A stretch of DNA of 4,645 nucleotides from the IMG/VR virus record IMGVR_UViG_2703718812_000024; one strand, given 5' to 3'. The notes beneath the pieces were generated by a model. The model was not told the origin of the DNA, searched no databases, and saw only the letters and a list, made by a program, of their open reading frames with translations. Shown one piece after another: positions 2,724 through 4,280 of the stretch (positions within the stretch are counted from its first letter, which is position 1; each line of letters starts with the position of its first letter). Source of the DNA: a virus. Its lineage: Duplodnaviria; Heunggongvirae; Uroviricota; Caudoviricetes. Both the position numbers and the translations under genes were made by a program.

Positions 2724-2975
2724 TAAATTTCCATGTGTGACATATAAAAGCCACCAGCGCAGAAAATAAAACGCCTCACGTTATGCAAAACGGGTTAACC
2801 ATCGTGATGCCTTGCCGCATTCAATTAACGGCAGGTAAAAAAATACCCGCAATGCAATAACACTACGGGCCATTAACGTAATATAAGGAGTTAACCGATG
2901 TGTATTGTATACAGTCGTGTGCATATTGTCACAGGCAACAGGCATCCGCGCCAAATACCCGCCAGAGAAAATCAG

Positions 2976-3005
2976 TTGATCGCCAGTATCAAAAATGGCT
3001 ATGAT
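2976..3005 (+). promoter_or_regulatory. Candidate sigma70 promoter of Icd-like module A: TTGATC (2976-2981), 18-nt spacer, TATGAT (3000-3005)
   Basis: The -10 is a 5/6 match to TATAAT and the -35 a 4/6 match to TTGACA. The same two hexamers with the same 18-nt spacing recur at 3451-3480, and both lie exactly 279 nt upstream of the respective Icd-like ATG. Confidence 0.45.
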
Positions 3006-3066
3006 TCCCGCGCACCTTATAAAACGGGTGTCGGGATTGGAACCCCGCTGGAGATAAAGGCGATAC

Positions 3067-3089
3067 AGACGCCGAACGCGTCTTTTTTT
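3067..3089 (+). terminator. Hairpin plus T7 run (terminator or attenuator-like) in the module A leader
   Basis: AGACGC (3067-3072) and GCGTCT (3078-3083) form a 6-bp stem around a CGAAC loop, followed by seven T (3083-3089). It lies about 62 nt after the candidate -10, so a short RNA of about 78 nt (roughly 3012-3089) is possible. Confidence 0.55.
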
Positions 3090-3155
3090 GTATCGGCGCA
3101 CACGCACACCTTATCAATGGTGGGCTGTATGGGGCTGACTTCGGTCAGGCTGGTT

Positions 3156-3165
3156 TCCTTTATCG
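3156..3165 (+). promoter_or_regulatory. Anti-Shine-Dalgarno element of module A (TCCTTTATCG), perfectly complementary to CGATAAAGGA at 3235-3244
   Basis: 10-nt perfect complement to the sequence overlapping the SD of the Icd-like gene. It is also complementary over 8 nt to an upstream SD-mimic GATAAAGG at 3053-3060. The orthologous element in module B covaries (see 3634-3643). Confidence 0.45.
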
Positions 3166-3254
3166 CCAGTAGTTCCAACTCCGTGCAGTCCACCGCCAGC
3201 GAGATTGGAACCTCCAGCGGTGGGTATATCCCAACGATAAAGGAGGCTGCCATC

Positions 3255-3443
3255 ATGGCTACTACCCCTGCCCTCGTACATTCTCAGACTGCCTTTATCT
3301 GGCGTTTTATCACCTTCGGCACGTCAGAACGTCAAATTATCCACGTAACCGCCTGGACGGAACGCGAAGCGCGTAACCGTTGCCCGTCCGGTTGTGTCGC
3401 TGTATTCGCTGCCCGTATTCGTCAGGGGGTGAGTCATGCTTAA
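3255..3443 (+). CDS. Icd-like small protein, copy A (62 aa; host cell division inhibitor Icd-like family of P1 / P4-like elements)
   Basis: ATG at 3255 preceded by a strong SD AGGAGG (3241-3246, 8-nt spacer). The protein MATTPALVHSQTAFIWRF...TEREAR...FAARIRQGVSHA shares WRF, TERE(A/T)R and ARIRQGV(S/R)HA motifs with copy B. It is in frame with a longer open frame from 2898; I consider the short form more likely, but this is unresolved. Confidence 0.6.
   Translation: MATTPALVHSQTAFIWRFITFGTSERQIIHVTAWTEREARNRCPSGCVAVFAARIRQGVSHA
3411..3430 (+). repeat. 20-bp exact direct repeat GCCCGTATTCGTCAGGGGGT (partner at 3868-3887) at the 3' ends of the two Icd-like genes
   Basis: Exact 20-mer in both copies, followed in each by GTCATGC, while the rest of the duplicated modules is much more diverged. 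Confidence 0.8.
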
Positions 3444-3450
3444 AAACATG

Positions 3451-3480
3451 TTGATCGCCTCTTCTTTCGGGCTGTATGAT
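3451..3480 (+). promoter_or_regulatory. Candidate sigma70 promoter of Icd-like module B: TTGATC (3451-3456), 18-nt spacer, TATGAT (3475-3480)
   Basis: Same hexamers and spacing as module A. The 9-mer TTGATCGCC is identical in both copies. It begins 8 nt after the stop of Icd-like copy A. Confidence 0.45.
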
Positions 3481-3535
3481 GCCGGAGTCGCCCACATGGC
3501 GACCGGGTTTAGCAGCCTGAATACTACAGCGGACA

Positions 3536-3565
3536 GCCGCTTACATTCCGATATGCGGTTTTTTT
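3536..3565 (+). terminator. Weak hairpin plus T7 run in the module B leader (degenerate counterpart of 3067-3089)
   Basis: GCCGC (3536-3540) pairs with GCGGT (3555-3559), with one G-U pair and a large loop, followed by seven T (3559-3565). The T-run sits at the same offset from the promoter as in module A (108 vs 107 nt). Confidence 0.3.
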
Positions 3566-3633
3566 GCGTCCGTAAACCTACCCATACCCGCATTATGGCG
3601 GGGCGTAACGGGGGAGCCTTTGCGCTCGCTGGT

Positions 3634-3643
3634 TCCTGTAGTG
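3634..3643 (+). promoter_or_regulatory. Anti-Shine-Dalgarno element of module B (TCCTGTAGTG), perfectly complementary to CACTACAGGA at 3711-3720
   Basis: 10-nt perfect complement overlapping the SD (AGGAG 3717-3721) of Icd-like copy B. It is also complementary to an upstream SD-mimic ACTACAG at 3523-3529. The sequence differs from module A, but complementarity is preserved in all three elements. Confidence 0.45.
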
Positions 3644-3729
3644 CCAGTCTGCTAACCCCGTTACGTCTCGCCACCATGTTTAGCAGCGTAGTAGCGAGAC
3701 TCCTTAATTTCACTACAGGAGCCTTTCAC

Positions 3730-3900
3730 ATGGCTGTATCCGCACGCCCTTACTTTGTCTGGCGCTTTATGCAGTGCCATGAAAAACAAACCTCACCCTT
3801 TACCGCCACGGCAGCAACAGAACGCGAAACCCGCGCACAACTTCCGCATACCCATCTGATTTTTGTCGCCCGTATTCGTCAGGGGGTACGTCATGCGTGA
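3730..3900 (+). CDS. Icd-like small protein, copy B (56 aa)
   Basis: ATG at 3730 preceded by AGGAG (3717-3721, 8-nt spacer). The protein MAVSARPYFVWRF...TERETR...FVARIRQGVRHA is paralogous to copy A. Its stop overlaps the start of the next gene (ATGCGTGA). Confidence 0.6.
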   Translation: MAVSARPYFVWRFMQCHEKQTSPFTATAATERETRAQLPHTHLIFVARIRQGVRHA

Positions 3901-4207
3901 TGTGTGTAACACCAGAATACTTGAACAACTGGTTACAACCATAAAAGCAGCTGACGCACGGGAAGCGAGAGCGATGTTTGATGATGCTGACTTCTACGCC
4001 CGCAAATTGCTTGAAGGGCTGGCTATCACAGGGCGCTTACTTTCTGGCATGAGTGACAGCATTGATCCTGACATGGACGAACTGCGCAGCCTGGGCGATT
4101 CCATCGCTGTTACGGCTGAACTTGTGGCCGGATTCAGTGAGGTTGTGGAGGTGTACAACTGGCGTTGCCGTAACGGAGATATCAGTACTGATTATCGCCA
4201 TTCGTGA
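3893..4207 (+). CDS. Hypothetical protein (104 aa) translationally coupled to Icd-like copy B; possibly the Ash-family partner usually found after icd-like genes in P4-like elements
   Basis: The ATG at 3893 overlaps the Icd-like stop (ATGCGTGA, stop 3898-3900). The ORF track gives an alternative in-frame start at 3863. The Ash-family label comes from recalled synteny only; I do not recognise the sequence. Confidence 0.55.
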   Translation: MRDVCNTRILEQLVTTIKAADAREARAMFDDADFYARKLLEGLAITGRLLSGMSDSIDPDMDELRSLGDSIAVTAELVAGFSEVVEVYNWRCRNGDISTDYRHS

Positions 4208-4280
4208 TAAGGCAACGACAGTCACAGCTAACCGCATTTATGCAGCAACGGCGTAACTGACCAGAACAAAGGATAAAAAA

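Follow-up and report, generated by a model that had tools for sequence, protein, structure and literature searches.

The question raised by IMG/VR virus record IMGVR_UViG_2703718812_000024, a 4,645-nucleotide (nt) stretch of Caudoviricetes DNA analysed here at its full length and called the window, is whether the DNA upstream of two small genes is regulatory leader RNA or protein-coding sequence. The two genes, Icd-like A and Icd-like B, belong with the Icd and Kil proteins of P1-like phages and satellite phage P4, and the reading frame of each continues open far upstream through its leader. An earlier description made from the letters of the window alone (the sequence-only reading) saw these open extensions as conflicting with the interpretation of the leaders as RNA, and proposed that the Icd-like proteins are really 181 and 154 amino acids (aa) long, that the leaders are translated as a leader peptide or for coupling, or that the open frames are relics. 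We propose that each extension forms the 5′ portion of a nested gene pair superimposed on an RNA immunity switch, in the manner of the P4 gene eta, which contains kil, and we put the probability of this explanation at roughly two in three. The comparisons below indicate that the leaders are IsrK/C4-type RNA genes and that the leader-RNA interpretation is right. Both features noted in the sequence-only reading are thus real, but the conflict between them is not supported: the evidence says that leader RNA and open frame coexist, because the C4 scores, the covariation and the matches between loops and targets accompany a frame that is kept across most lineages.

Open frames and RNA modules upstream of the Icd-like genes

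Long open reading frame (ORF) A (2898–3443, 181 aa; all coordinates are on the plus strand of the window unless stated otherwise) has a strong ribosome-binding site (AAGGAG, 2885–2890) before its ATG at 2898, and the preceding stop in the same frame is TAA at 2892. The frame runs 119 codons without a stop to ATG 3255, passing through a promoter-like site, an IsrK-like leader, a terminator, the antisense RNA C4-A and its target sites before it enters Icd-like A. In the closest Escherichia coli locus (L001, 95.6% identical), the start assigned by the Prokaryotic Genome Annotation Pipeline (PGAP) to an 'ash family protein' lies at the position of ATG 2898. Long ORF B (3436–3900, 154 aa) starts within ATGCTTAA, where its ATG overlaps the stop of copy A (TAA, 3441–3443; last codons CAT GCT TAA). 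The preceding stop in its frame is TGA at 3430, and 98 stop-free codons lead to ATG 3730. The ATG at the 3436 position was kept in the aligned loci, elsewhere as the start of the next, coupled gene. Both ORFs were recovered from the ORF listing, and phrog_29966 matched the whole of ORF A and residues 3–154 of ORF B. The coordinates, ribosome-binding site and start codons that the sequence-only reading gave for the extensions all hold, and its percent-level estimate for the chance of each open run agrees with 5000 dinucleotide-preserving shuffles, in which the probability that the one frame concerned was free of stops was 0.009 for extension A and 0.020 for extension B. The remaining two forward frames carried 4 and 3 stops in extension A and 5 and 8 in extension B.

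Each extension contains a complete RNA immunity module of the P1/P4 type. A hexamer scan found TTGATC-18-TATGAT at 2976–3005, with the −35 hexamer (2976) 78 nt 3′ of ATG 2898, as a counterpart of the P4 promoter PLE. Its −10 box was kept in 31 of 32 aligned leaders, and the IsrK model begins 7 nt downstream, at 3012. The same hexamers recur in module B at 3451–3480, with the −35 hexamer (3451) 15 nt 3′ of ATG 3436. We call both sites promoter-like, as their hexamers resemble the consensus and lie at conserved positions directly 5′ of the start of the IsrK model. The IsrK/seqA-like leader of module A (3012–3090) matched Rfam isrK at 3012–3088 with 61.5 bits (cut-off 50); it includes the sites a1 (3037–3043, in the loop of hairpin 2) and b1 (3053–3060), and a terminator scan placed an intrinsic terminator at its end (stem 3067–3083, T7 to 3090). 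Leader B (3487–3565; a1 3509–3515, b1 3523–3529) scored below the cut-offs for isrK (36.6 bits against 50) and c4-a1b1 (32.4 bits against 46.7), and its terminator hairpin is weak; yet it keeps the three-hairpin fold, the T7 run (3559–3565) and 7-nt complements to the loops of C4-B. The promoter-like hexamers, and the hairpin with its T7 run (3067–3090), thus lie inside the open frames as the sequence-only reading had described.

The C4/CI-type antisense RNAs scored well above the Rfam C4 cut-off of 45 bits in both modules, with 77.6 bits for C4-A (3113–3200; recognition loops b′ 3156–3165 and a′ 3172–3178) and 73.5 bits for C4-B (3591–3678; b′ 3634–3643 and a′ 3649–3655). When 33 diverse C4 sequences were aligned, 96.6% of cells could pair and 14 of the 27 base pairs had changed on both sides, compared with 35–47% paired in slid control alignments. 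An AUGG at the C4 5′ end was invariant in all 33 (3117–3120 in module A and from 3595 in module B); it is in frame with the short gene and lies 46 codons upstream in module A and 45 codons upstream of ATG 3730 in module B, and module A has a second in-frame ATG at 3129.

Pairing between loops and targets was assessed by exact complement searches restricted to the C4 loops. Loop b′ of C4-A is an exact complement of 3053–3060 and 3235–3244, and loop a′ of 3037–3043 and 3205–3211, so that the upstream sites a1 and b1 are repeated downstream as a2 (3205–3211) and b2 (3235–3244) with perfect 7–10-nt complementarity. Module B repeats the arrangement, with exact complements of b′ at 3523–3529 and 3711–3720 (b2) and of a′ at 3509–3515 and 3680–3686 (a2). 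Both b2 sites overlap the ribosome-binding site of the short gene that follows, AAGGAGG (3240–3246) for Icd-like A and CAGGAG (3716–3721) for Icd-like B. In the same search, the loops of either module lacked any 7-nt complement among the other module's targets, and the two modules therefore appear to be orthogonal. Cognate and non-cognate C4–target pairs could not be told apart by duplex energies of the whole molecules, because the entire C4 is unfolded in such calculations.

The two modules are about 46% identical overall, and identity is clustered on the −35 and −10 hexamers, the T-run, the C4 arms and the Icd C-terminus, which bears out the observation in the sequence-only reading that conservation between the copies concentrates on regulatory-looking nucleotides. 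Among 32 distinct homologous leaders, the stems, the terminator and the −10 box were nearly invariant, variation lay in six recognition blocks, and a1/a′/a2 and b1/b′/b2 co-varied three ways. Because such three-way co-variation is the signature of multi-specificity antisense-RNA immunity, it argues strongly that the leader-RNA interpretation is correct.

Several further observations concern the specificity of these RNAs. In E. coli satellites (loci L004–L041, leaders of about 250 nt upstream of the Icd-like ATG), the recognition blocks (window 3037–3060, 3153–3178 and 3203–3244) were hypervariable; at least six a-types and about seven b-types were found, and their reassortment among loci suggests many immunity specificities that recombine with one another. 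The C4 loops of a satellite (L006, 1359–1446) and of Stx2 phage F039 (L084, 1616–1703) were identical (GGTTCCCTTGATTGCC and AGTCCTAAC), and the two elements could cross-regulate each other's switches. The a′ loop of the window is the same as that of phage phiP27, and the b′ loops differ. Folding also gave the C4 3′ arm an alternative hairpin with a2 in its loop (3190–3196/3217–3223 in module A, 3665–3671/3694–3700 in module B); the pairing is preserved although module A, module B and other leader types build it from different sequences. The choice between the C4 fold and this target-presenting fold looks like a switch.

Comparative survey of the open frame

Homologous loci were picked through the short Icd/Kil protein or through similarity of the leader DNA, never through the translation of the extension. 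They came from viral contigs and GenBank phages, together with a scan of genome contigs with a close Icd/Kil alignment, which gave three loci; an alignment of seven Icd/Kil proteins was too diverse to be of use in finding loci. When openness was defined as at least 85 codons, that is, the whole leader, frame 0 was open in 70 of 76 distinct leaders (nine clusters at 85% single linkage), compared with seven for frame 1 and one for frame 2. At least 99 codons are open in each of the 13 distinct B-type leaders, and a first screen of P4-like satellites found the frame open over 124–160 codons in 58 of 60 distinct loci. Open runs of 105, 202, 182 and 116 codons occur in four lambdoid phages (phiP27, SfV, Stx1_699 and Stx2_EH1910), although their leaders have only 68–73% identity to that of the window; in these phages, the depositors annotated one gene spanning the leader, followed by Rha domains. 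The idea that the long frame distinguishes satellites from phages was dropped in view of these four phages.

Stop triplets came and went at many positions in the other two frames, at 27 sites in A-type, 21 in B-type and 15 in P4-type leaders (63 in total). In frame 0, four were seen among A-type leaders, only in L003 and L007, both of which are shifted by a 1-nt deletion, none among B-type leaders, and two among P4-type leaders, in the exceptional loci L148 and L165. The hypervariable recognition blocks have changed repeatedly and have never created an in-frame stop, and the frame remains open upstream of the internal promoter-like site, outside the RNA constraint.

Codon-aware substitution analysis, which the sequence-only reading had named as a way to decide among its options, gave ratios of nonsynonymous to synonymous polymorphism (pN/pS) for the leader of 0.81 (A type), 1.31 (B type) and 0.68 (P4 type), against 0.35, 0.41 and 0.05, respectively, for the short gene; the other frames of the leader stretch gave about 0.8–1.1. 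In an AlphaFold model of ORF A, residues 1–120 had block-mean predicted local distance difference test (pLDDT) values of 21–30, no residue before 131 reached 50, and residues 131–170, within the Icd-like part, reached 64–67; a low-confidence model is weak evidence, and pLDDT does not prove the absence of a fold. The survey thus indicates that the frame is kept open and is not a product of chance, and that the encoded peptide is unimportant, because its amino acids show no purifying selection.

Frames longer than those of the window were also seen. In one group of loci (start at 661 in L008; at 1132 in L009, L015, L016, L017, L020, L023, L031 and L033; at 1078 in L027 and L028), the frame begins in the remnant of an earlier Icd-like copy, consisting of a ribosome-binding site, an ATG and the first 24–45 codons joined in frame to the promoter region of the next module. 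Such starts are what is left of tandem modules that recombination has collapsed, and the resulting ORFs are 184–204 aa long. Another group has frames of 414–517 codons ending in Icd (L004, 442–1683; L010, 445–1686; L006, 376–1686; L013, 289–1686; L005, 136–1689). Their first 210–370 residues gave no strong family match; those of L004 and L010 start 13 nt after the alpA-like stop, and that of L005 is antisense to a real gene (phrog_6522). Given the missing strong N-terminal match, the Icd-like remnants and the antisense overlap in L005, such open runs of 380–500 codons do not count as evidence for a large protein.

Related immunity systems, proposed mechanism and its rivals

The closest parallel is P4 (NC_001609, L086). 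On its minus strand, Rfam C4 matched the CI immunity RNA (8507–8420, 74.9 bits) and isrK matched the seqA region (8692–8615). Between a stop at 8824 and TAA 8168, the frame that crosses CI and seqA comprises 217 open codons. Three of its ATGs (8767, 8764 and 8761) lie 5′ of the promoter, where ORF88/vis ends, and the invariant AUG of the C4 5′ end lies at 8503. ATG 8365, preceded by ACAGGAGGCTGCCATC, leaves 65 codons, whose product matches phage_ICD_like at 76 bits and aligns with the Icd-like proteins of the window. The 217-codon frame with its 65-codon end is the published nested pair eta/kil. According to Forti et al. (1999, J Bacteriol 181:5225), as summarised in PMC10111431, the constitutive promoter lies internal to eta; CI/seqA interactions rapidly terminate its transcript, from which CI is processed, and occasional read-through gives Kil, a truncated form of Eta. 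The same summary has full-length Eta made only from the upstream late promoter, in translational coupling to the alpA homologue, and its translation preventing termination.

In the window as in P4, an alpA/vis-type gene is followed by the start of the long frame 5′ of the internal promoter; next come a terminator-bearing IsrK-type leader and a C4-type RNA, and then the in-frame short Icd/Kil gene, whose ribosome-binding site is covered by a target. Both also have GGAGGCTGCCATC-ATG-GCT-AC ahead of this gene, and in both the long frame is kept open without amino-acid conservation. Among the sequence-level features of P4 eta/kil, only the coupling of the long-ORF start to the alpA/vis homologue is not seen in the window, where ORF A begins 177 nt beyond alpA from a ribosome-binding site of its own, whereas P4-like long frames start at or over the vis stop. 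ORF B, for its part, has its start codon over the stop of Icd-like A. Unlike P4, the element is PICI-like (resembling phage-inducible chromosomal islands), with a RepA-type helicase, SSB, PerC and DUF4222. By this comparison, the window is the known eta/kil design in another satellite, differing by two tandem modules with different recognition loops and thus different specificities.

The immI operon of phages P1 and P7 encodes the c4 antisense RNA, icd and ant. C4 is cut from the transcript that is under its own control; its targets are a1/b1 and a2/b2, of which b2 covers the ribosome-binding site of icd, and a coupled gene follows icd. The window shares the C4 RNA with a′ and b′ loops, both pairs of targets, and the Icd-family gene followed by a coupled gene. 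It differs in that its gene after Icd B has no Ant, Rha or KilA domain, unlike ant of P1/P7, and in that its frame is open, whereas the frame upstream of icd is closed in the P1-family phages D6 (6 codons) and 673R5 (65 codons). These two phages represent the P1 family here, as Megablast with a P1-like leader gave few relatives.

In Gifsy-1 of Salmonella, isrK (34316–34240) and a C4 match (34214–34131) lie upstream of the antirepressor gene. The orf45 AUG (34210, +107) is the invariant AUGG of the C4 5′ end, with a second AUG at +119; their counterparts in the window are ATG 3117 and ATG 3129, at about +106 and +118 from the IsrK start, and ATG 3595 in module B. The isrK-orf45-anrP arrangement thus shares with the window an IsrK with terminator and a read-through ORF from the C4 AUGG. 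However, orf45 stops on the next start codon (AUGA), whereas the frame of the window is fused to the next gene, and that gene is an antirepressor in Gifsy-1 and Icd-like in the window. Tagging demonstrated that orf45 is translated, and the next gene needs this translation (Hershko-Shalev et al., 2016, PMC4825925); orf45 is conserved in nucleotides and varies in amino acids (PMC4825925).

The following course of events may be envisaged for the window. The internal promoters would yield short IsrK-like RNAs, with C4 arising through read-through and processing, and C4 would pair with a2 and b2 and mask the ribosome-binding site of the Icd-like gene, two steps that rest on sequence evidence. As in P4 and Gifsy-1, the untranslated transcript would be terminated, keeping Icd and the replication genes silent, whereas transcripts from upstream, presumably from the alpA operon, would bring ATG 2898 with its strong ribosome-binding site. 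By analogy with these systems, ribosomes would then translate across the terminator hairpin, C4 and its target sites and produce the long form of Icd; in doing so they would prevent the RNA from folding and maintain its coupling to the polymerase. Translation of the long frame would in this way prevent termination and render expression insensitive to C4. At the stop of Icd A, restart at ATG 3436 would carry the override through module B, and a further restart at ATG 3893 would lead into the 104-aa gene. Translating itself would matter and the peptide would not. The invariant AUG at the C4 5′ end (3117, 3595) may act as a third nested start, the counterpart of Gifsy-1 orf45. The option of translated leaders or coupling in the sequence-only reading agrees well with this scheme, as it fits a frame kept open without amino-acid conservation and matches P4 eta/kil and Gifsy-1 orf45.

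More tentatively, and with more doubt than belief, we suggest that the tandem modules could act as a serial lock. The frame of module B would be entered only by ribosomes that finish Icd-like A, so that the replication genes would be turned on only when lock A opens, through loss of C4-A or upstream translation, and each C4 would guard its own internal promoter. The hypervariable loops could let satellites and phages sense or silence each other in trans, and the frame would be open purely for translation over RNA genes.

Several points weigh against the nested-pair explanation. We infer the promoters, the upstream transcript and the translation of the long frames by analogy, and ORF A is uncoupled from the alpA-like gene, unlike P4 eta. 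The leaders are related and their RNA is strongly conserved, so the open-frame counts are not independent trials. Moreover, several lineages have lost the frame. Phage D6 has IsrK (59 bits), C4 (76 bits), icd and ant with only 6 open codons, all three frames closing 6–11 codons before the icd start. In P1-like phage 673R5, a stop inside the IsrK region leaves 65 open codons, and in Stx2 phage F039, a stop in the IsrK region leaves 71. L007 has lost the frame through a 1-nt deletion in the IsrK hairpin, and L003 (E. coli) and L088 (Escherichia albertii) share a 1-nt deletion just before the ATG by which the fusion is lost; the long frame is also lost in L148 and L165. Homologues with stops or frameshifts but kept elements, which the sequence-only reading held would refute the long proteins, thus exist, though as a minority. 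Because several lineages keep the RNAs without the frame, these comparisons indicate that the long frame is dispensable in some settings. As separate observations, the shifted frame in L003 (1268–1927, E. coli 537-20) and L088 (1019–1678) stays open for 59 more codons and ends near the Icd stop, and orf84 of D6 (L175; 561–860, minus strand) lies on the opposite strand to the IsrK and C4 genes (651–729 and 774–861) and is probably a spurious call.

The losses bear first on the possibility that the frames are by-products or relics, open only through RNA conservation and an ancestral lack of stops, untranslated and unselected. The absence of purifying selection on the leader amino acids fits this idea, as does the loss of the frame despite intact RNAs in D6, the P1-like phage, F039, L007 and L165, and the proximal 45–46 codons on their own would be open by chance in shuffles with a P of 0.13–0.20. 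Stops have nevertheless come and gone at the 63 sites of the other frames, while frame 0 has them only in four exceptional sequences, two of which are shifted. This avoidance in one frame only extends to the often-changed recognition blocks and to the part upstream of the promoter, where RNA constraint is absent. RNAs do not by themselves force an open frame, because D6 has them without one, and reports on the homologous systems of P4 and Gifsy-1 describe the frame as translated and functionally important. We therefore consider the relic option unlikely.

A second possibility is that only the proximal ORF is used, with translation starting at the AUG in C4 (3117 or 3129; 3595) on read-through from the internal promoter and the distal part open by chance. 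The invariance of AUGG in 33 of 33 C4 sequences and its experimentally demonstrated use as the first start codon of orf45 speak for it, and the P1-like phage and F039 are open from this AUG but not upstream of the IsrK region. However, 70 of the 76 leaders are open well beyond the AUG, across terminator and promoter, and A-type leaders have 13 stop-triplet sites 5′ of the AUG in other frames and none in frame 0 when the shifted sequences are set aside. ATG 3117 has no preceding ribosome-binding site, and the conservation of AUGG may be RNA-driven only, as its two G's open the C4 closing stem. Proximal translation can be compatible with the nested-pair explanation; as the whole account of the frames it appears distinctly improbable.

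The surrounding element and the 'Ash' family

The short genes themselves are well defined. Icd-like A (3255–3443, 62 aa) matched NCBIfam phage_ICD_like (NF033153) with 55.9 bits, limited to residues 133–176 of ORF A, and Icd-like B (3730–3900, 56 aa) with 43.5 bits at residues 107–149 of ORF B; the same model gave 76.1 bits for P4 Kil and 49.8 bits for Icd of a P1-like phage. Icd-like A aligns with P4 Kil (65 aa) and with the annotated Icd of the P1-like phage (73 aa). The short start, with its ribosome-binding site beneath the antisense target, was kept in every lineage examined.

Upstream lies an AlpA/Vis-type helix–turn–helix gene (2520–2723, 67 aa; Pfam Phage_AlpA and HTH_17), the counterpart of P4 ORF88/vis, whose stop is separated from the ORF A start by the 177-nt gap. 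Downstream, a gene of 104 aa (3893–4207) occupies the position of ant in P1; its ATG overlaps the stop of Icd-like B (ATGCGTGA), as ATG 3436 overlaps that of Icd-like A, and it had no match in Pfam, NCBIfam or PHROGs, including Ant, Rha, KilA and Bro. A visibly AT-rich gene of 298 aa (1486–2382) between the integrase and alpA also had no match in these databases. Between alpA and ORF A, two leftward terminator-like hairpins with T-runs lie on the minus strand (2870–2845 and 2792–2772), and no minus-strand gene accounts for leftward terminators in 2724–2897. Weak minus-strand Rfam matches to isrL (20.3 bits) and to a tmRNA fragment (22.5 bits) were taken as chance, being far below the cut-offs; 4194–4258 on the minus strand is among the positions of weak sub-cut-off matches. 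Locus L001 adjoins tRNA-Ile and runs in the order integrase, 298-aa gene, AlpA-type regulator, two C4–Icd modules, 104-aa gene, DUF4222, RepA-type helicase, SSB and PerC. Judged by gene order, this is a phage-satellite (PICI-like) layout, and sid, delta and psu were not seen in the host element at L001. In RefSeq, the first extension of this locus is an 'ash family protein' pseudogene ('missing C-terminus') that shares its frame with a 62-aa Icd-like gene annotated separately, and the RNA genes are left unannotated; PGAP uses the 'ash family protein' label for this stretch in E. coli genomes generally examined here.

This annotation leads to the family itself. Pfam Phage_ASH (PF10554) matched ORF A at residues 35–129 (nt 3000–3284) with 51.2 bits against a cut-off of 26, a span that takes in the −10 box, IsrK, C4, the targets and the first ten Icd codons; ORF B had no Phage_ASH match in Pfam. 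In P4, PF10554 matches an obsolete 'cI gene product (AA 1-137)' over the CI RNA, and epsilon matches PF25738 instead (epsilon region examined: 7888–8175, minus strand). The P4 reference record carries this 137-aa 'cI gene product / transcriptional repressor' coding sequence at 8168–8584 on the minus strand and leaves kil and eta unannotated. Several PHROGs covering the leader translation are labelled repressor or regulator. Ash has been treated as a domain of unknown function in Rha proteins of Stx phages (PMC8951638) and as a conserved PICI protein (PMC11773190), and PF10554 has been used as the epsilon profile to detect P4-like satellites (PMC8628076). Because the leader pN/pS values, the co-variation of the blocks with their RNA partners and the pLDDT of 21–30 all point to conservation of RNA and not of a protein fold, our analysis indicates that the 'Ash' family (PF10554, PGAP 'ash family protein', PHROG 29966) is a translation of the IsrK/C4 leader RNA.

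The option that the Icd-like proteins are truly 181 and 154 aa long, with a functional 'Ash' domain fused to Icd and a wrong short gene call, could appeal to this Phage_ASH score, to PHROG families that cover the full length, and to more than 100 database clusters of 140–317 aa covering 78–100% of the long ORF; as the sole form of the proteins it is nevertheless unsupported and very improbable indeed, since the match coincides with the IsrK and C4 genes, and in P4 with the CI RNA, known to act as RNA, since the leader evolves at a pN/pS of 0.7–1.3 and its translation has no confident fold, the Icd part reaching a pLDDT of 64–67, since ORF B lacks any Ash match, since the start conserved everywhere is the short one, the Icd-like model covers the short part only and P4 Kil and P1-like Icd are of the short form, and since phage D6 has the short gene alone.

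The apparent contradiction between an RNA leader and an open frame is settled in this way. A single stretch of DNA can serve simultaneously as small-RNA gene, promoter, terminator and translated frame, and the eta/kil model of P4 explains why. Satellites and some lambdoid phages have the frame open, D6 and the P1-like phage have it closed, and its peptide is unconserved; this pattern offers a clear and testable case of selection for translation itself.

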